In this document: piece after piece, positions 4,305-16,119 of the stretch
How the letters are laid out: each line of letters starts with the position of its first letter
Numbering within the stretch: the first letter of the stretch is position 1
Source of the DNA: a virus
Taxonomy: Duplodnaviria > Heunggongvirae > Uroviricota > Caudoviricetes
DNA: 62,020 nt
Virus record (IMG/VR): IMGVR_UViG_3300023082_000008
Coordinates: 64,001 to 126,020 of that record
Reading direction: 5' to 3' (one strand)
Made by a program: the position numbers and the translations under genes
The notes under the pieces: generated by a model
Databases searched by the model: none
Told to the model about the DNA's origin: nothing
Seen by the model: the letters and a program-made list of their open reading frames with translations, nothing else

Positions 4305-6220
4305 GTCTAGTAAAGGGTGAAATTGAGAATCCGTACCAGTCGTTTATCAGCAAGTCCAGATATTCGAAATGGATTCCAGAAGAGACGCGTCGTGAGACGT
4401 GGCACGAAACGGTTAGCCGATATGTGACATACATGTCTAAGACGGACGCCGGTAGGAGACTAGGCAAGGCATTCTGGAACGATGCAGAAGTTGCTATCGA
4501 GAACCTAGACGTAATGCCCTCAATGCGTGGGCTTATGACCGCTGGTCCTGCACTAGAACGCGAAAACCTAGCGCAGTTTAACTGTTCATTCATTTCAGTT
4601 GATGACCCACGAGCGTTTGATGAGGCTCTGTACATTCTGATGAATGGTGTAGGCCTAGGATTCAGTGTTGAATCCCAGTACACATCACAGTTGCCAACCA
4701 TTCCTGTAACCCTTGAAAAGGTACAGACAGTTGTACGCCCCGGAGACAGCAAGGCTGGTTGGGCTCGCGGATTCCGTCAACTGATTACCCAGTTGTACTC
4801 AGGACAGATTCCGAAGTTCGACTTCCAAGACATTCGCCCCGCAGGCGCACGTCTAAAGACATTTGGTGGTCGCGCAAGCGGACCACAGCCTCTGTTTGAC
4901 CTGTTCCAGTTTACTGTGGACATGTTCGTGAATGCAGCAGGACGCAAGTTGACACCATTTGAGTGCCACCGCATTATGTGCAAGGTGGGTGAGGTCGTGG
5001 TTGTTGGAGGCGTTCGTCGTTCAGCACTGATCAGCCTGTCCGATCTTGGAGATTACGAAATGTCCAAGGCAAAGTCCGGTGCATGGTGGGAGTCAATGCC
5101 TGAATTGGCACTGGCAAACAACTCTGCTGTTTACAACAAGCAGCCTTCGATTGGTCAGTTCCTCACCGAGTGGGGTAACCTGTATGAGTCAAAGTCAGGC
5201 GAGCGCGGTATCTTCAATAAGGAATCTGCTGTGCGTGGCTCAAACGACCGTAGAGACTGGACAAAGATCGAGGGTACGAACCCTTGTGGAGAAATCCTAC
5301 TTCGCTCTAAGGGCCTATGCAACCTTACTGAGGTTATTGTTAAGTCCGAGGACACTGTTACAACTCTACAGCGTAAGGTTGAATTGGCTACCGCGTTGGG
5401 AACAGTGCAATCCAGCCTAACTAACTTTAAGTACCTGCGCAAGGCATGGCGTGACAACGCTGAGGAAGAGCGTCTTTTGGGCGTATCTCTCACAGGACAG
5501 TTTGGTCACACACTCTTGAATGGTTCTGAGGGACTAGACAAGTTGGCCGATGTACTCGACCTTCTTCGTTTGACCTCGATTGCAACCAACAAGGTTTACG
5601 CACGAAAGATTGGCATTAACCCATCGCAGGCAATTACCACGGTAAAGCCAAGCGGTACGGTTAGCCAGTTGACTGCATCAAGTTCAGGTATGCACCCATG
5701 GTACAGCGAGTTTTACATTCGTTCAGTCCGTGGAGATAACAAGGACCCACTGACCCAGTTCCTTATCGAGGCAGGCGTTCCCAACGAGCCAGACGTGATG
5801 AAGCCGAATGCAACAACTGTATTCTACTTCCCACAGAAGGCACCAGAGGGCGCGGTAACTCGAAAGGACTTGACTGCTATCCAGCACCTAGAGGTCTGGA
5901 AGGTATACAAACAGCACTGGACGGAGCACAACCCATCCATTACCATCAACCTCCACGAGGAAGAATGGATCAATGGCGCAGACTGGGTATACGACAACTG
6001 GGACAGCGTCGGTGGCTTGAGTTTCTTGCCATACGATTCCGGTACGTACAAGCAGGCCCCTTATCAGGAATGCAGTGAGCACGAGTACAACGAATTCATG
6101 AGCGGAATGCCAGCCATTGACTGGGATGACCTCAGCCTATTCGAAGAAGAGGACACGACGACCGGTAGTCAGACATTGAACTGCACGAGCGGTAACTGTG
6201 AACTTGTGGACATCTCCTAA
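4301..6220 (+). CDS. nrdJ: class II (B12-dependent) ribonucleotide reductase
   Basis: FNCSF, GGVRRSA, TNPCGEI, TTVKPSGT and C-terminal CTSGNC. No beta subunit nearby. Confidence 0.93.
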   Translation: MSLVKGEIENPYQSFISKSRYSKWIPEETRRETWHETVSRYVTYMSKTDAGRRLGKAFWNDAEVAIENLDVMPSMRGLMTAGPALERENLAQFNCSFISVDDPRAFDEALYILMNGVGLGFSVESQYTSQLPTIPVTLEKVQTVVRPGDSKAGWARGFRQLITQLYSGQIPKFDFQDIRPAGARLKTFGGRASGPQPLFDLFQFTVDMFVNAAGRKLTPFECHRIMCKVGEVVVVGGVRRSALISLSDLGDYEMSKAKSGAWWESMPELALANNSAVYNKQPSIGQFLTEWGNLYESKSGERGIFNKESAVRGSNDRRDWTKIEGTNPCGEILLRSKGLCNLTEVIVKSEDTVTTLQRKVELATALGTVQSSLTNFKYLRKAWRDNAEEERLLGVSLTGQFGHTLLNGSEGLDKLADVLDLLRLTSIATNKVYARKIGINPSQAITTVKPSGTVSQLTASSSGMHPWYSEFYIRSVRGDNKDPLTQFLIEAGVPNEPDVMKPNATTVFYFPQKAPEGAVTRKDLTAIQHLEVWKVYKQHWTEHNPSITINLHEEEWINGADWVYDNWDSVGGLSFLPYDSGTYKQAPYQECSEHEYNEFMSGMPAIDWDDLSLFEEEDTTTGSQTLNCTSGNCELVDIS

Positions 6221-6261
6221 CTCTGGTAGACTTTACAAGAGTTAGAGGCAGCACTATCCAG

Positions 6262-6299
6262 CCCCCATCCGAACAACTGAAGCCTCGGATGGGGGTTTC
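6262..6299 (+). terminator. intrinsic terminator
   Basis: CCCCCATCCGA / TCGGATGGGGG 11-bp stem followed by TTTCT. Confidence 0.8.
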
Positions 6300-6333
6300 T
6301 GCATTAGAATTATTGAAGGCGTACAATTATGGT

Positions 6334-7176
6334 ATGAGCAAACCAATTAATGGAACCCAACTAAAGGCCGCTTTCAAGAAGTGGGACGTAGACGCTGAGT
6401 ATCTTAGCGGATTCGAGACCCGTGGCCGACCAGCAAGCCTCGGATGGGGCGACGTCAAGGGCATCGTCATTCACCACACTGCTGATGAAACTCAGTCAGA
6501 ATCTTATGTGAATTGGCTATTCAAGACAGGTCGAGCAGACCTCCCAGCCCCATTGTGCCACTTTGCAACAAACAAGAAGGGCAAGACATATGTAGGAGCC
6601 CTTGGTCGTGCAAATCACGCCGGTAAAGGATCAGCAAGCGTACTAGACCTAGTAAAGTCAGAAAAGTATGACGGATTTAATAAAGAACTAAAGGGCGGTA
6701 ATTCCAAGGATGGAAACGCAGTCTTTTACGGTAATGAAGTTATGTACCGTGGAGTTAACGGTTTCCACATGACTAATGAACAGTATCAGGGAGTTCTCAA
6801 GTTTTGTGCCGCGTTGTGCGACTTCCACGGATGGTCAGCACTTAGCATCATTGGACACCGAGAGTGGGCATCTACCAAGATTGACCCTGGCTATGTTGAC
6901 ATGGCCAAGTTGCGTCGCGACGTGCAGAAATTGCTAGACAGTAAGGATTCAGCACCAGCGCCGGTAGAAGTAGATAGCCCAACAACCCTCAAGGTTCAGA
7001 CATATTACGTAAACAAAGACGTAGTCAACGGTTACGACAAGCCCAATGGTAAATCAAAGAAGCAGCGCTCACGCAACTTCAAGTTGTACACCGTAGCCTA
7101 CAAAATTGTTAATGGCGAAACATGGGTGCGTCATCCAGCGGGACTATGGTATCGAGAAGCGGGTCTTCGTAAGTGA
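6334..7176 (+). CDS. endolysin, N-acetylmuramoyl-L-alanine amidase (Amidase_2) with C-terminal SH3-like region
   Basis: GIVIHHTA, GRANHAG, IGHREW, KIDPG. Start ATG 6334, 6 nt after TACAAT. Confidence 0.9.
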   Translation: MSKPINGTQLKAAFKKWDVDAEYLSGFETRGRPASLGWGDVKGIVIHHTADETQSESYVNWLFKTGRADLPAPLCHFATNKKGKTYVGALGRANHAGKGSASVLDLVKSEKYDGFNKELKGGNSKDGNAVFYGNEVMYRGVNGFHMTNEQYQGVLKFCAALCDFHGWSALSIIGHREWASTKIDPGYVDMAKLRRDVQKLLDSKDSAPAPVEVDSPTTLKVQTYYVNKDVVNGYDKPNGKSKKQRSRNFKLYTVAYKIVNGETWVRHPAGLWYREAGLRK

Positions 7177-7928
7177 CTCAAAAATGGTTTACTTTGATGA
7201 GTTGGAACATTGCTCATCTCAATTCAACCGGGGTTCGCACATGGGCAACCCGACGCGGTACAGTTGTTCGAAAGATTAAGAATGTAGCGCCAGATGTGTT
7301 CTGTTCACAGGAGAACGTCAAAACGGTTGGTAGGCTAAGTGGTTATGGATATATTGATTCTAAATTGTCATCATATGAGCGTGTGGCGGGTTCTGATGGT
7401 CGTTATATCTACATTCGTCAACAGACTGTAAAATACATTGCTGGTGGAGTCTTTCAACTCACGCCCAAGTACAAAGGTGATGACAAGCAGGCTGCATGGG
7501 CTATCCTACAGATGCGCTCAGGCGGCGAGCCATTCCTCGTTACCTCGTACCACTTGGAAAACGAGGGTATGTCAGACCTTATTCGTTACAAGCAAATGAA
7601 GTCATGTCTGTCACAGGCTAAGGCAAAAGCAAGCGTGCGCGGTATTCCTACAAGCCGAATTTTCCACGCGGGAGATACGAATTTCCAGACAGCCGGTGCG
7701 ATTAACAAGGTTAAAGCGTTGGGATATGCTGATGCATTCGACAAGGCAAAGACAGTTAAGAAGAAGAGTTACCGTTCTTTCAATGACTGGCGCGCAACTC
7801 GTGTTGGATTCCGCATTGATCGTATTTGGATCAATGCTAGCCGACCTATCATTCTTGCGCAGCAAATTACTAGTCTTTTCCGTGCAGCGGACCACAACCC
7901 ACAGGTGGTTGTAGTAGGAAAAACATAG
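7173..7928 (+). CDS. endonuclease/exonuclease/phosphatase (EEP) family protein
   Basis: LMSWNI, PDVFCSQE, TSYHL, AGDTN, RIDRIW and ADHNP catalytic motifs. GTGA overlap with the endolysin. Confidence 0.88.
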   Translation: MTQKWFTLMSWNIAHLNSTGVRTWATRRGTVVRKIKNVAPDVFCSQENVKTVGRLSGYGYIDSKLSSYERVAGSDGRYIYIRQQTVKYIAGGVFQLTPKYKGDDKQAAWAILQMRSGGEPFLVTSYHLENEGMSDLIRYKQMKSCLSQAKAKASVRGIPTSRIFHAGDTNFQTAGAINKVKALGYADAFDKAKTVKKKSYRSFNDWRATRVGFRIDRIWINASRPIILAQQITSLFRAADHNPQVVVVGKT

Positions 7929-7940
7929 TGATATAATAGA

Positions 7941-8095
7941 ACTATCCAGATGGGACATAGGTGCCCGTCGCGATTCGTACGAGTCCACCGAGACAGCGTG
8001 CTAGTCGTTCACTCCGGTCGCTATCAATGATTACGGCTAGGATGGTATAGTTACAGAAGGACCCGAGGCTAGGTGCTCTCGGGTCCTTCGCTATT
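7941..8095 (+). ncRNA. candidate small structured RNA
   Basis: Promoter TGA-TATAAT (7929-7937). No ORF. Closing stem 7941-7947/8040-8046 with three internal hairpins. Terminator at 8056-8089. Confidence 0.5.
8056..8095 (+). terminator. intrinsic terminator-like hairpin
   Basis: GAAGGACCCGAG / CTCGGGTCCTTC 12-bp perfect stem. Confidence 0.75.
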
Positions 8096-8122
8096 TAGAC
8101 CCATGAATGCTACAATAGCAAC

Positions 8123-9706
8123 ATGAGTTATTACGACGAAGTCATCAGAGACGCCCCCGATTCCATTTTTATGATGGATGATAATTTTCTCAATGCGTCA
8201 GGAAGATCAGTTGCGACCCAATTCACCGGGGCGGTAGACGACACCGGACCGGCACTGGTTGCTGGAGCGTCTAAAGCAAGTTTGTGGAATGCTAGTGCTT
8301 CTCTTCAAATCACTTTTCCCCTAATGAAGGAAGGAAAAGAAAGAGAACCCTTTACACTTGAATCCTGGTTTAGGCCAGTTGCTGGCGCAGGTCAATTTTC
8401 CATTGCGACCAATTCTTTTACTTATGATGGTCTATTTTGGAATGGCACGTCATTAACTTTTTCTTTGAAATTATCAACAGGATATGTAGGAGTAGAGTAT
8501 ACTCCTTTAGTCTTGTCAAATATGCACATTGTGGGTGTTTACAGTGGAACGGCATTGACTCTTTTTGTTAATGGAAATCCTGTAGCCAGTAGACAACTTA
8601 CAATAGCAGAACAAGCCCTCAAATTTTCTCCTGTTTCTACTACTCAATATATTTATCACGGAACCGGAGTTGGACTTTCCAACGCCTTGGCTGCGTATTG
8701 TCTTGTTCTACCAGCCGATCGTATTCGCGCACATTACGCCGCCGGTATAGATACGCGTCCGATGGATGCCGCAGGCACTATGCATGGTGGAATGTTTGAA
8801 AAGATCAATCTTGATCAGGGAGAAACATTCTTGAATAGAACTTTCAATGATCAGATTACTTATGAAAATGCAATTTTTACATGTTCTGTAACTGATGTTT
8901 TGGCACCCAAGCAAGACGACGACGGTACATATCTTGCGGGAGAGTGGCAAACTGCTGTGCCATTGGGTCAAGGTGGTACTAGCATTAACGGCATTAAATT
9001 AAGTTGGGTTGGCACGGGCATATTTTCTATTTCTACTTCTATTGATGGAATCTCATGGGACCAAGCGACCAAGAATGATTTCAAAGTATCTACAATTGCT
9101 CCGGGCTTTGATGGTACCGGAAAATGGATATACCTAAAAGTTAACTTTGCTGCTGATTTTGCAAGTGAAATTAAAAGCATTTCTTTGGTGGGATACAAGG
9201 ACATGGGCATTAAAACGCTCAAGCGTGCTATTACTTTGCCGGACGATGCGGTCTTGTTTAGCGACGATCAGGTGATCACCTATTCGGATGCCAATGGACT
9301 TTACACTCCTACTGGATTGACAATTGGAGCAACAGAAGAGGCTGACCCGGTATACGCTTTAGGTTTTTGGTATAACTCTCCAATCGGTAATGTGACAGTA
9401 AATGTGACTCCCACAGCGTTTTATGAAAACTCTATTCTTCGCTCCCCACGCACAGTAAATGGACGATGGACGTATGCGGTTTATGTGTTCCCGGCCACCA
9501 CAACTGAAATAGTGATTACTGGTAATACAAATATTGTGGCACCGGTGCTATATTCAGCATCAATTGATGCCCAACAAGTTAAAGAAATCTATTACTCGTA
9601 CACAGGTTATCCAAAACTATCTCTTGCATCTTCTGGAGTTTTTTCTATCAATACTCCCACGGCCAAAATTTATAGCAACGATTGGACAAGTTCCGGTACA
9701 GGCTAG
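8123..9706 (+). CDS. LamG/concanavalin-A-like lectin domain virion protein
   Basis: FTLESWF...MHIVGVYSGTALTLFVNG...RIRAHY LamG signature. Leaderless promoter TGC-TACAAT, 6 nt, ATG. Confidence 0.8.
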   Translation: MSYYDEVIRDAPDSIFMMDDNFLNASGRSVATQFTGAVDDTGPALVAGASKASLWNASASLQITFPLMKEGKEREPFTLESWFRPVAGAGQFSIATNSFTYDGLFWNGTSLTFSLKLSTGYVGVEYTPLVLSNMHIVGVYSGTALTLFVNGNPVASRQLTIAEQALKFSPVSTTQYIYHGTGVGLSNALAAYCLVLPADRIRAHYAAGIDTRPMDAAGTMHGGMFEKINLDQGETFLNRTFNDQITYENAIFTCSVTDVLAPKQDDDGTYLAGEWQTAVPLGQGGTSINGIKLSWVGTGIFSISTSIDGISWDQATKNDFKVSTIAPGFDGTGKWIYLKVNFAADFASEIKSISLVGYKDMGIKTLKRAITLPDDAVLFSDDQVITYSDANGLYTPTGLTIGATEEADPVYALGFWYNSPIGNVTVNVTPTAFYENSILRSPRTVNGRWTYAVYVFPATTTEIVITGNTNIVAPVLYSASIDAQQVKEIYYSYTGYPKLSLASSGVFSINTPTAKIYSNDWTSSGTG

Positions 9707-9769: not shown

Positions 9770-10087
9770 ATGAAGACAACACATATTGAAGACACAAACC
9801 TTGGTGTTTACCTTGCAAAGTCTGAGGGAAACTACATCATCAATGAAGATGAAGAGTTTTTGCTTATTTATGGTATGCGAAACGACAAGCGAAAGGTCGT
9901 TGAACTTATCAAAGTAGCAAAGAGTTTTGGTCTGCCCGACATTACAGTTGAATTTCGTCCAGACCAACGCCCAGTGTCTCACGAAGAATATGATGAACAG
10001 ATGGAACGTCTCAAGAATGGTATCACTCCCGATCCCTACGATCTTGGTCACTTAATTGATCAGTACAATGAGGCGAACGGCAAATGA
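9770..10087 (+). CDS. hypothetical protein preceding portal
   Basis: Leaderless promoter TGG-TAAAAT, 6 nt, ATG. Coupled to the portal gene by overlap. Confidence 0.75.
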   Translation: MKTTHIEDTNLGVYLAKSEGNYIINEDEEFLLIYGMRNDKRKVVELIKVAKSFGLPDITVEFRPDQRPVSHEEYDEQMERLKNGITPDPYDLGHLIDQYNEANGK

Positions 10088-11793
10088 GTGAAATTAGAGT
10101 CACGGCGGTAGAGGATGACAATCCAGAAGACTACAGGGTAGTTAAGCGAATTGTCACTGGCGTACGTACCGGTCCTTCACACGTAGATAAGGCGACTGGA
10201 GGAGAAGACCCATTCCTTAAAAAGGTTAGTGAACTTAAGTTAAAGACATCCGGCAAGAACTCAATTAAGCCGTCACTTCACAAAAAGGCCCAGCGTCTTG
10301 AAAAGGTATATCAAGGAAAAACAGGTTCTGGCGAAAAAGTCCAATCTAAGCAGAAGTTTGAAGAAACTGCTTCCGGGTATGGATATCTTGAAGTAGTTCA
10401 GCCGTTCTATAATCTAGACTATCTTGCCAAGTTGTATGAGGCGTCTTCTACAAACTCCGCAGCCATTAGAGCAAAGGCAGCAAACGTAGTTGGCCTTGGG
10501 TATACGCTTGTTGAGTCAAATAAGACCAAGCGTAGGTTTGATGATCTTCAAAGTGACAAGGATGGTCTAGCCAAGTACCGTGTCAAAGTGAACAAGATTC
10601 GTGACAATGTCATGGATATGCTTGACGAATTTAATGAAGAGGATGACTTCAATGAAGTTCTTCTGAAAGCCTACATTGACTACGAAGCAACTGGTCAGGG
10701 TTATATTGAAATTGGTCGTGGAGACGACGGACAAATTGGAATGATCGCGCACGCGCCTGCCACCACAATTCGCGTACGTCGTGCTCGTGACGGTTTTGTA
10801 CAAATTGTCTCCAATGATGCGGTGTTCTTCCGCAATTTTGGAGACACTACCACACCCAACCCAATTGGTAATGATCCTGAGCCAAACGAACTTATTGTTA
10901 TCAAAAAGTACACACCAACAAACACTTACTACGGTATTCCAGATATTATTTCTGCAAAGGAAGCGCTGGCCGGTAACGCGTTTGCAGCGAAGTTCAATCT
11001 TGATTACTTTGAGAACAAGGCCGTGCCACGCCACTTGATCATTCTCAAGGGTGCAGAGTTTAGTCCAGCCGCAGAGCAATCTATTGTCGAATTCTTCGAA
11101 ACGGGACTTAAGGGCAAGAACCACCGCTCTCTGTACGTGCCTCTACCGGGTGACTCACCTGACGAGAAGGTTGAATTTGATATCAAGCCTGTTGAGGCCG
11201 GTATTCAGGATCAGTCCTTCCAGAAGTACCACGATTCTAATCAGAGCGAAATACTAATGGCCCACGGAGTCCCACCAAACAAGGTAGGTATCTCTGCGGG
11301 TGTATCCGTTGCGTCTGCACTAGAAGCGTCACGTACATTCAAAGACCAAATTTCTACGCCAGAGCAGCGTCGCTGGTCAAAGAAGATTACACGCATCATT
11401 AAGGAATTGACTGAGGCATGGATTTTCAAATTCAACGAAATGTCACTTACCGACGAAGATACTCAAAGTAAGATTGATGAGCGAAACGTCCGAAACTCTA
11501 TTGAAATGGCAAATGAAATTCGTGCACGTAAGGGTCTTCCTGCAATTGAAAAGGGTGATCAAACAGTTGTGGACATTGCAGAAGAGGAGCGTCTCGCCGC
11601 TGAAAAGTTAGCGAAGGAGCAGTCAGAGGCACAGATAAAGGCCGGTGAATCACAGGCTAAAATTGATGCACAGGCCGCTCACGCGAAACAAAATGCTACA
11701 GGCGACGGTGCTCGCGGAGCAGAGAGAAGTGCTGCAACTTCAACGACTTCTGCTCAAGGGCGTGCTCCAAAAGGCGAGGGTAGACGTAGTTAA
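10084..11793 (+). CDS. portal protein (PBSX-like)
   Basis: DYEATGQGYIEIGR, YYGIPDIISA, DYFENKAVP, EILMAHGVPP, NEIRARKGLP. Confidence 0.92.
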   Translation: MSEIRVTAVEDDNPEDYRVVKRIVTGVRTGPSHVDKATGGEDPFLKKVSELKLKTSGKNSIKPSLHKKAQRLEKVYQGKTGSGEKVQSKQKFEETASGYGYLEVVQPFYNLDYLAKLYEASSTNSAAIRAKAANVVGLGYTLVESNKTKRRFDDLQSDKDGLAKYRVKVNKIRDNVMDMLDEFNEEDDFNEVLLKAYIDYEATGQGYIEIGRGDDGQIGMIAHAPATTIRVRRARDGFVQIVSNDAVFFRNFGDTTTPNPIGNDPEPNELIVIKKYTPTNTYYGIPDIISAKEALAGNAFAAKFNLDYFENKAVPRHLIILKGAEFSPAAEQSIVEFFETGLKGKNHRSLYVPLPGDSPDEKVEFDIKPVEAGIQDQSFQKYHDSNQSEILMAHGVPPNKVGISAGVSVASALEASRTFKDQISTPEQRRWSKKITRIIKELTEAWIFKFNEMSLTDEDTQSKIDERNVRNSIEMANEIRARKGLPAIEKGDQTVVDIAEEERLAAEKLAKEQSEAQIKAGESQAKIDAQAAHAKQNATGDGARGAERSAATSTTSAQGRAPKGEGRRS

Positions 11794-14646: not shown

Positions 14647-15135
14647 GTGTCACTTATTGACAAGATGAACAAGAAGGACTTGCAGGGCCTAGCCCGCAGT
14701 ATCTTCGTAGAGTTGCCCGAGGGTGCCAATCTCGCTGAGATTCGCGCAATCCTCCACCAAGAAAATTTGACGGACGATGATATCGAGAACATTGAAATCG
14801 TTCCTGAGGTTGATCCGAACAAGCCACTCGTGGCTGAGGCTGATGGTAGTGTCGTTACGACGAACACTCTTCGTGCTGAGGAAGAAGCAGCACCCGAGCC
14901 TGAAATTGTAGCAGTCGTTGAGCCCGAGTATCAGCGCGGTGCGCCAGCGCCGGTAAAGACCGATGTGCTTATCAAGTATGAGCGTCTTAATCCTTCCTTT
15001 GAGATACTAACATATAAGTTTACTAGCGAGCACCCATTTTTGCTAGTACGCCCAGAGGACGCGGACTACATCGTCCGTAACATTCCAGGATTCCGTCCAG
15101 CACTAGAGTCAGAAGCACAGGAGTTCTACTCCTAA
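14647..15135 (+). CDS. acidic head-associated hypothetical protein
   Basis: GTG start with SD AAGGAG. Own promoter TGC-TACAAT at 14607-14615. Terminator downstream. Confidence 0.75.
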   Translation: MSLIDKMNKKDLQGLARSIFVELPEGANLAEIRAILHQENLTDDDIENIEIVPEVDPNKPLVAEADGSVVTTNTLRAEEEAAPEPEIVAVVEPEYQRGAPAPVKTDVLIKYERLNPSFEILTYKFTSEHPFLLVRPEDADYIVRNIPGFRPALESEAQEFYS

Positions 15136-15148
15136 TCAGGCCGCATCG

Positions 15149-15180
15149 AGACCCTTCATCCTAATGGATGGAGGGTCTTT
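15149..15180 (+). terminator. intrinsic terminator
   Basis: AGACCCTTCATCC-TAAT-GGATGGAGGGTCT followed by TTG. Confidence 0.8.
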
Positions 15181-15213
15181 GTGTTTGAATTGGAGCAGTG
15201 ATACACTGTAGAT

Positions 15214-16119
15214 ATGGACGTGCCAAAGGGTTATATCTCAAAGATCAAAATTCCTGTACCGGGTGATGTAGACGCATTTATTGGTGTCACTCGCTCGGAT
15301 ATGGTCATTGGGCCAGCACTACAGGTCACTGCATCGGGTGGAGTACTAGAAGTAACTCTACCGTACAAGGCTACGCACGACGAAGGCGTTGTCAACCTTT
15401 TGGTTACATTCGAGATTGACGGGGAAGAATTCAATCGTTCTCTTGACGTCAATGTTGTCACTCCATACATTGAACTTCACGAAATCAAGGATATTTTGGG
15501 TGATGCAGCAGACGACCAAGAATGCTTTGACGCAGAGGCCGCAGCCCGTCAGATCATTAATGCTCACACGGGTCAGGAGTTTGGTTTGTTTGTAGGAACG
15601 GTCAAAGTTCTTTCAAATTATGATGAAGCGCTTCCATTGCCACGTCGTTTGATTGAGCCAACCAAGATCGTGGCCGGTACCATTCCGATCTTTGATCGTG
15701 ACACACCCACCTCATACCTAAACTTCCTAGGAGAGAATCAATTTGTGACTACCGGCTCAGGTTGGTTCCTCAAGCGTCCAATCTGGTCATCTTCCATCAT
15801 TGTGGGAGACATGTACTCGTCCGATCCAATTGAGGCTCCACGCTTTACTGGTGTACACAAGTTCGACAACGATGTTGAATACACCATCACAGGCAAGTTT
15901 GGATACGAATCTGTTCCAGAGCCAGTACGTCAGGCAGCGAAGATTCTCACTGAACAGTACGAATGTGCAGACCGTGAGTACCGCGAGCAGTACCTAGAAT
16001 CTATCAAGAGTGCAGACTGGCGCATCCAGTTTAATTCTGGCGCATACCGTCGCACGGGCAATGCTCGTGCTGACAAGTTGCTGTCACCATATGTAATTAA
16101 CCGCGCCAAGGTGATTTAA
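15214..16119 (+). CDS. head-to-tail adaptor/connector
   Basis: AEAAARQIINAHTGQEF...GKFGYESVPEPVRQAAKIL...ADKLLSPY, plus position in the head-tail block. Confidence 0.75.
   Translation: MDVPKGYISKIKIPVPGDVDAFIGVTRSDMVIGPALQVTASGGVLEVTLPYKATHDEGVVNLLVTFEIDGEEFNRSLDVNVVTPYIELHEIKDILGDAADDQECFDAEAAARQIINAHTGQEFGLFVGTVKVLSNYDEALPLPRRLIEPTKIVAGTIPIFDRDTPTSYLNFLGENQFVTTGSGWFLKRPIWSSSIIVGDMYSSDPIEAPRFTGVHKFDNDVEYTITGKFGYESVPEPVRQAAKILTEQYECADREYREQYLESIKSADWRIQFNSGAYRRTGNARADKLLSPYVINRAKVI

Follow-up and report, generated by a model that had tools for sequence, protein, structure and literature searches.

A candidate family of phage small RNAs at the boundary between lysis and head genes in large Streptomyces-type siphophages

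Small RNAs embedded in the 3' untranslated regions (UTRs) of bacterial transcripts are known to arise by one of two routes, either from an internal promoter, as for DapZ and MicL, or by processing, as for CpxQ and SroC. Two phage systems are also relevant to what follows. The PR'-tR' unit of phage lambda specifies a 194-nt "6S" late leader RNA and operates together with Q antitermination, and the put RNAs of phage HK022 are cis-acting processive antiterminators. The RNA element considered here, which occupies a spacer between the lysis and head genes of an uncultivated soil phage of the Streptomyces type, invites comparison with all three. Like the 3'-UTR-embedded small RNAs, it lies at the very end of a coding operon and shares the predicted terminator of that operon, its 3' segment is conserved while its upstream stems vary, and both biosynthetic routes have a counterpart, in that most lineages carry a promoter after the stop codon and one lineage does without. 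Unlike them, it is phage-encoded, belongs to an actinobacterial system lacking Hfq, has been predicted from sequence, and possesses a closing stem (P1) that overlaps the promoter itself and would form only in the read-through form. As in lambda PR'-tR', a predicted promoter would fire into a strong terminator and yield a short non-coding transcript just before the late morphogenesis genes; in contrast to that unit, a putative leaderless promoter beyond the terminator serves the first head-region gene, neither a Q-like gene nor a binding element was identified, and one lineage has no promoter. With put, as that element has been described, it shares at least two adjacent conserved hairpins that immediately precede a terminator at the border of an operon, and it departs from the same description in that the downstream genes appear independent of read-through and the interior is not conserved across lineages.

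The window, by which we mean the whole stretch of 62,020 nt that was analysed, comprises bases 64001-126020 of a 126-kb IMG/VR phage record whose G+C content is 47.8% and in which ARAGORN detects 36 tRNA genes, all within the first 38 kb. A 194-nt spacer at 7929-8122 of the window separates the lysis genes from the head genes. To its 5' side lie an Amidase_2 endolysin gene (6289-7176) and, directly adjoining the spacer, a gene of the endonuclease/exonuclease/phosphatase (EEP) family (7173-7928, with its TAG stop at 7926-7928). To its 3' side lie, directly adjoining, a LamG-domain gene (8123-9706), then one small gene and the portal gene (10084-11793), and also a prohead protease gene. A previous sequence-only reading of this DNA had called the segment free of open reading frames (ORFs), and no conserved ORF is indeed present in 7929-8122; the single ORF on the plus strand, of 26 codons from the ATG at 7951, lacks its start in the related contig L002. 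From the comparisons set out below we regard two points as established at the level of sequence. The spacer holds what can be described as a selected, plus-strand, structured RNA element with a universal 3' module and a lineage-specific interior, and this predicted element has a fixed address between the endolysin cassette and the putatively leaderless LamG-portal block, which follows it directly.

The core of the spacer (7938-8048, plus strand) is predicted to fold into a four-way junction of helices P1 to P4, the minimum-free-energy (MFE) and centroid structures being identical, and a long hairpin (8047-8094) follows the junction. P1 pairs ACUAUCC at 7941-7947 with 8040-8046, and P2 is a hairpin at 7949-7969 that is specific to the window clade; both had been proposed before, and both are present in the MFE and centroid folds. 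The two remaining hairpins of the earlier proposal, at 7972-7985 and 8001-8008/8033-8040, are replaced in all four phages of the clade by P3, a long hairpin at 7970-8008, and P4, a hairpin at 8016-8038, likewise on the plus strand. The upper part of P3 (7977-8001), which we call the GAGUCC hairpin, reads GUACG-A-GUC-CACCGA-GAC-AG-CGUGC. Between P3 and P4 the junction segment UCACUCC (8009-8015) is near-invariant in the window-clade alignment, and in the fold of an RNA starting at 7944, where P1 is incomplete, it becomes an alternative partner of GGAUGG. The pseudoknots that had been suggested fare poorly, as the ACCG loop of P3 becomes GAAA in L003 and UGAAAAC in L004 without a matching change in its partner. 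A longer outer helix, in which GUGAUA of the upstream promoter box (box A, below) would pair with UAUUAC of the tail, was also considered and dropped, there being no compensation where box A reads TGC.

Folding energy gives a mixed answer. The whole spacer reaches -73.4 kcal/mol on the plus strand (z -4.6 against shuffled sequences) and -62.8 kcal/mol on the minus strand (z -2.4); the core alone, at -38.5 kcal/mol on the plus strand, is only modestly better than its shuffles (z -1.9), 8 of 200 being as good, and the case for the structure consequently rests on comparison and not on energy. The duplex of P1 with the tail (-8.7 kcal/mol) is equalled or beaten by 9 of 200 shuffles. The plus-strand orientation, which had been argued from wobble pairs, is upheld: the energy is lower on that strand, and the G-U pairs, together with exchanges between U-G and C-G, fit the plus strand only.

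Three relatives of the LamG protein, at 62-64% identity and encoded on the uncultivated contigs L002, L003 and L004, have the same gene order as the window and a spacer that can be aligned with it over the full length. In the resulting alignment, which comprises four sequences only, three of them close, 94.1% of cells are paired, compared with 29-46% when the partners are slid by 1-3 columns. P1 is 96.4% paired across the four phages, with U-G to C-G and C-G to U-G changes that make sense on the plus strand only, and P4 is 100% paired, with one double change from G-C to A-U. Pairs changed on both sides number four, three of them in P2 of L002 and one in P4 of L003. The four-way junction is the MFE structure in three of the four phages; in L003 the MFE structure opens P1 while the other helices stay, and an unrelated 11-bp hairpin stands at the P2 position of this phage. 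The strongest single result is that the spacer is constrained far more than neutral sites and is better kept than the adjoining genes. Pairwise identity of the spacer is 0.81-0.88 among the window, L002 and L004, and 0.65 between the window and L003, whereas at third codon positions the corresponding values, over all pairs, are 0.33-0.56 (EEP gene) and 0.35-0.43 (LamG gene). Because the spacer stands well above the neighbouring third codon positions, it must be considered to be under selection. The check for covariation in relatives came out in favour of the sequence-only reading to the extent that a four-way junction is kept in the window clade with compensatory changes, and the comparison as a whole shows strong purifying selection on an element with a probable plus-strand fold, the helices of which are maintained by compensatory substitution.

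The window clade itself is small. A covariance model of it (R1) matches only the four clade members, with no further copy elsewhere in the window's own genome, in the genomes of phages Wofford and NootNoot, or in 40 distant LamG loci. Single-protein searches of IMG/VR for close relatives gave no match, a motif scan of IMG/VR returned 0 matches, and a motif scan of JGI metagenomes returned 6 chance matches that were rejected by the covariance model. More distant homologues of the EEP protein (P0009-P0011) are found in unrelated phages in which the element is absent.

The LamG gene leads to a much wider family. A tblastn search with the LamG protein found 127 records of cluster BE (Stanwilliamsviridae) Streptomyces phages at approximately 26% identity, in which an endolysin gene stands upstream, in some cases with an HNH gene after it. 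A blastn search with the NootNoot spacer located the element in 112 BE phage records, and none of the matches listed lay under an annotation as RNA or as any other non-coding feature. The BE element is shorter than that of the window and has the same flanks. It opens with TGnTAnnnT right after the endolysin stop codon, and six bases later comes a first hairpin, ACAGCC-UA-UGGA-AAUGAG-UCCG-GGUUGU, and then a second that contains CGUGC. On the 3' side of these hairpins are an invariant CUUAGGAUGG and the motif UAUAnUUAC, and the element closes with a long bipartite hairpin and UUUU, beyond which TAnAAT stands exactly 6 nt before the LamG ATG. Among 18 diverse BE phages, the first hairpin (P2) is 98.9% paired, with A-U to G-C changes in three phages, a C-G to U-A change in one, and alternation among G-U, G-C and A-U; G-U is found at one pair in 12 of the 18 sequences and U-G at another in 16. 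A 16-nt loop is all but invariant in the same 18 aligned phages, with one Y position.

A covariance model of the BE element (R2) recovered one new member, L007, which has the same flanks and a different interior of 105 nt, and it did not reach the window even at E ≤ 10. As such, the homology between the window and BE elements rests on shared flanks, tail, terminator and synteny; their interiors have GAGUCC, GAGAC and CGUGC in common, a partial sharing that carries no model score. A second protein-guided scan of IMG/VR added BE-like metagenomic copies, the lineages L074, L102 and L107, and a subfamily C (L095-L105). Subfamily C has neither the promoter box nor the 5' strand of P1. What it retains is a pair of hairpins, the tail CCUUAGGAUGAU(A/G)UAGUUAC, the terminator and then the leaderless promoter. 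Its first hairpin, GUCGC-GA-GUC-loop-GAC-AA-GCGAC, corresponds to 7977-8001 of the window, with three of the five lower-stem pairs changed on both sides. The interior folds vary by lineage, forming 3-way, 4-way or larger junctions. A promoter-type box precedes the element in most lineages, and the upstream gene is an endolysin wherever this was checked (BE loci, L007, L095 and L103; Amidase_2, PG_binding or as annotated), to which the window clade has added the EEP gene. The family appears to belong to large Streptomyces-type siphophages, namely Stanwilliamsviridae of cluster BE and their metagenomic relatives.

Several members carry an HNH gene between the terminator of the RNA and the LamG promoter, as in Wofford (L005, 3049-3438) and Tomas (L063, from 481), and also, according to the blastn listing, in Braelyn, Persimmon, Leo04 and Anedea. 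The Wofford insert has a promoter-like box and a second terminator-like hairpin of its own. These insertions leave the RNA and its terminator intact, and the gap in which they lie seems to be a site at which homing-type cassettes have repeatedly been inserted.

Common to all lineages is the 3' module, consisting of GGAUGR...UAGUUAC and a bipartite terminator, which can be aligned in 13 representatives covering every lineage, GG(A/G)UG and UU(A/G)C being invariant. The conserved tail of the window, AGGAUGG-UAUAGUUAC (8039-8055, plus strand), includes the 3' strand of P1 (8040-8046) and a second -10-like box. This box, TGGTATAGT at 8043-8051, is present as had been claimed, but its TG is displaced in L002 and L004 and its hexamer is TGTAGT or AGTAGT in subfamily C; judged from these relatives, the box is more aptly counted with the conserved tail than among the promoters. 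The tail motif lies 72-94 nt before the LamG start in most loci and 226-561 nt before it where an extra gene (e.g., HNH) has been inserted. Structure predictions leave the tail single-stranded in the BE forms and pair it, in the window form, within P1 or with the junction segment UCACUCC. Target sites with which a trans-acting small RNA might pair did not emerge: sites complementary to the tail are in no excess over a reversed-pattern control in the Wofford and NootNoot genomes, and the top matches in the window's own genome were unconvincing. Two other readings of this region were tried and rejected, namely a mini-ORF from the AUG of AGGAUGG, the frame and length of which are not kept across lineages, and a boxA/nut-like interpretation of CGCUAUUU, which is found in only two lineages. 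In L097 (1115-1145) the tail motif is tandemly duplicated (GATGTAGTTACATAGTTGCAC) by comparison with the near-identical relative L095.

The putative bipartite terminator hairpin (8047-8096, plus strand) is composed of a lower stem (8047-8051/8090-8094) and an upper stem (8056-8067/8078-8089) followed by UUU, the upper stem being the 12-bp G+C-rich terminator stem noticed earlier. The terminator stem shows compensatory changes among the window-clade phages. The U run of the window is UUU only, against UUUU after the homologous BE hairpins, and a simple terminator scan did not list the hairpin because this run is short. In its loop (8068-8077), CUAGGUG is invariant in all four clade members and is not found in the terminators of BE or of subfamily C.

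The other boundary of the RNA is set by box A, an extended -10 element, TGATATAAT, that stands at 7929-7937 (plus strand) directly after the EEP TAG stop, exactly where it had been pointed out. It conforms to the pattern TGn-TAnnnT of actinobacterial extended -10 promoters, which is a criterion of sequence only. TGnTAnnnT is kept at the box A site in the three close relatives, in nearly all BE-type elements, and in members of L007, L074, L102 and L107; Coruscant (L060) has a box A that lacks the TG. Leaderless mRNAs are common in actinobacteria, and in the window's own genome the placing of the motif suggests that many mRNAs begin without a leader, from extended -10 promoters. The coding strand has 236 copies of TGNTANNNT, where base composition predicts 130, and the opposite strand has 136; for long ORFs, the spacing between hexamer and first start codon has a sharp maximum at 6 nt (10 cases, all ATG). 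Instances of TGNTANNNT exactly 6 nt before the ATG of a long ORF are seen at 2157, 8108, 9755, 14213, 15199 and 53066 of the window, with others in the genome. The instance at 8108 is box C, TGCTACAAT plus 6 nt plus the ATG at 8123 (8108-8125, plus strand), a putative leaderless LamG promoter that lies outside the RNA and marks its downstream boundary. The hexamer-N6-ATG geometry of box C (occasionally N7) is kept in relatives, and the LamG gene would accordingly be served by a promoter of its own after the hairpin.

Following the geometry of the 10 leaderless genes, transcription from box A is predicted to start at A7944 (plus strand), the 7th base after the -10 hexamer; in BE phages the same rule makes +1 the base with which the first hairpin opens, an A in 17 of the 18 phages and a G in the other. 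The 5' strand of P1 lies upstream of this predicted start, wholly so in BE and partly so in the window, where AUCC (7944-7947) remains, and since P1 overlaps the box A promoter, the complete helix would be confined to read-through RNA. Despite this position, selection seems to act on P1. Pairing between the box A segment and the tail averages -9.6 kcal/mol in 35 distinct members, compared with -3.8 kcal/mol for the box C segments of those members and -5.1 kcal/mol for shuffles that keep the promoter consensus, and the register of P1 differs by lineage (CUAAGU:ACUUAG, CUAUCCU:AGGAUGG and UAUCCUAAGG:CCUUAGGGUG). The lack of box A in subfamily C implies that an own promoter is not essential to the family. 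The sequence-only reading had credited the RNA with a dedicated promoter and terminator, and of this description the two elements stand while the word "dedicated" does not: a promoter-type box and a terminator hairpin do flank the RNA, but the terminator would also end the lysis operon, the predicted start at A7944 falls inside the closing stem, and one lineage has the RNA without the promoter.

No catalogued RNA family accounts for the element. Rfam 15 at its gathering scores gave 0 matches in the whole window, and 4227 Rfam families searched at E ≤ 10 against the 451-nt region 7800-8250 gave only noise (mir-185, rimP and HOTAIRM1_3). The models for HDV-like, twister, twister-sister, pistol, hatchet and hammerhead ribozymes, Y RNA and riboswitches were included in the scan and yielded nothing, which agrees with the earlier failure to place the RNA in a family. 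Across eight loci holding family members, Rfam again had no match on the element, and ARAGORN predicts no tRNA or tmRNA gene in the window. We found in the literature no description of the spacer RNA and no transcriptome of a BE phage. The sequencing runs listed for this DNA were two leaf-litter metagenomes and included no RNA run, which is neutral as regards expression. That the RNA is a self-cleaving ribozyme, or a mimic of tRNA or Y RNA, is an idea to which we attach hardly any probability. It draws on nothing but the compact multi-stem shape with its 7-bp closing stem, and the ribozyme-like or tRNA-mimic character once suggested for the fold finds no counterpart in Rfam even at E ≤ 10, in the eight family loci, or in ARAGORN, which detects 36 tRNAs elsewhere in the genome. 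In addition, arms of 21, 39 and 23 nt are far from tRNA dimensions, the suggested pseudoknots do not covary, and the architecture of the core depends on lineage; an interior fold that is not kept between lineages is unlike a catalytic or tRNA-like core. A riboswitch is little better served, as the interior differs between lineages and no conserved antiterminator pairing was seen, and the notion is weakened further by the fact that the regulated gene would have its own promoter.

We favour the interpretation that the spacer RNA represents, for the window clade, an uncatalogued family of phage small RNAs, made in two forms that end at a shared terminator, and we judge its chances to be evenly balanced. 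A conserved tail and terminator, variable stems, and a promoter that follows the stop codon or is missing altogether make up the pattern of 3'-end small RNAs, and it is on this account that a small-RNA unit is preferred. Host RNA polymerase would start at box A (A7944) and stop at the hairpin 8047-8096, giving an RNA of approximately 150 nt, and in transcripts that run on from the endolysin and EEP genes this sequence would form the 3' end, termination again taking place at that hairpin. The interior hairpins, which vary, would act as a scaffold and the invariant tail as the working part, for example as a base-pairing or protein site. P1, complete only in the read-through RNA, would mask the tail, such that the two RNA forms may differ in function. 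The role of the RNA may relate to the switch from lysis/early expression to head-gene expression. A caveat to this small-RNA interpretation is that the tail of the window clade is modelled as paired, and is not obviously the free seed that it is in BE. A more elaborate possibility, which we hold to be doubtful, is a two-state device in which the start site of transcription decides whether P1 hides the tail or the tail is free. Were this true, a single locus would give rise to two RNAs, an inactive one in the 3' UTR and an active small RNA or, alternatively, one competent for antitermination and one not, and the phage would thereby time the hand-over from lysis/early transcription to head-gene expression. 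A promoter whose -10 element and discriminator double as the masking strand of its own RNA would be an unusual design.

The main rival to the small-RNA interpretation is a cis-acting RNA that controls read-through of the terminator into the LamG-portal block, by put-type antitermination or as an attenuator; once folded, the RNA, alone or together with a factor bound to it, would alter its own polymerase or switch the hairpin downstream. Such control is in keeping with the position of the element, immediately preceding, in every case, a strong hairpin and the gene that opens the head region, and with the presence of adjacent hairpins upstream of a terminator. It would also suit subfamily C, where the lack of a promoter means that the RNA exists only in transcripts from upstream, and the selection on P1, upstream of the box A start, which suggests that the read-through form matters. 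We nevertheless think it unlikely. Read-through seems unneeded for expression when LamG and many later genes have their own leaderless promoters, and in several phages the RNA and LamG are kept apart by HNH cassettes that bring a second terminator, two features that also speak against a put-like antiterminator in the narrower sense. Moreover, no conserved alternative pairing between the tail and a terminator arm was found by eye, and an interior fold that is unconserved between lineages would be unexpected for a polymerase- or ligand-binding core.

Two further explanations dispense with a functional RNA. The spacer might be no more than a dense array of DNA and RNA signals, with two or three promoters and a terminator, in which the hairpins protect the 3' end of the lysis mRNA. 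Promoter boxes and terminator do account for part of the conserved blocks, the folding energy of the core reaches only z -1.9, and the interior is replaceable between lineages, all of which this account would accommodate with ease. What it leaves aside is the conservation of loops and junctions well outside the boxes (the 16-nt loop in BE; UCACUCC and P4 in the window) while synonymous sites are near saturation, the retention in all lineages of a GGAUGR...UUAC tail that is mostly neither a consistent -10 box nor a terminator stem, and the maintenance of P1 complementarity through different registers; we consider it quite unlikely. A DNA-level element, be it a regulator-binding region with inverted-repeat half-sites or a packaging or replication signal, would sit well with the nearby portal region, the inverted repeats flanking the interior and the high sequence conservation. 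Yet the conserved G-U pairs of the plus strand are A-C mismatches on the other strand and would be meaningless in duplex DNA, the helices change by compensatory substitutions, and P1 varies both in register and in the spacing of its arms, from approximately 50 to 105 nt, all of which makes a DNA element very improbable.

More than 100 genomes have been sequenced from cluster BE, whose members are among the Streptomyces phages most frequently isolated, and the RNA family has cultured members in NootNoot, Samisti12 and Coruscant. The element is one of the best-conserved non-coding stretches of BE, yet it is without an RNA annotation in the records examined and without an Rfam match. It marks the boundary between endolysin and head genes across two subfamilies of the Stanwilliamsviridae and several uncultivated lineages, and a boundary so fixed and conserved provides a testable handle on gene control in large actinobacteriophages. 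The small-RNA interpretation would lengthen, by one clear example, the short list of phage small RNAs known from high-G+C Gram-positive systems; should the function prove trivial, the value of the element would be limited to better annotation.

Some observations from the surrounding genome deserve mention. ARAGORN finds no tmRNA in the whole genome to which the window belongs, against the 36 tRNAs it detects; a single tmRNA has been reported for phages of cluster BE1 (PMC5764925). The spacer between nrdJ and the endolysin gene (6218-6310) contains TGGTAGACT and then a hairpin, CCCCCATCCG...CGGATGGGGG (6263-6297), and the 9-mer ACTATCCAG at 6253-6261 is identical to the P1 5' strand at 7941-7949. 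Since the listed endolysin ATG at 6289 falls inside this hairpin, the true start of the gene may be later. Finally, an ORF-poor stretch between two ORFs at 15,130-15,460 of the same genome, approximately 48.6-48.9 kb before the window start, contains the hairpin GGCTA-TCC-TAGCC, which amounts to a 12-nt complement to the tail of the spacer RNA. This complement is partly palindromic and may therefore be due to chance; the stretch could be another non-coding RNA.
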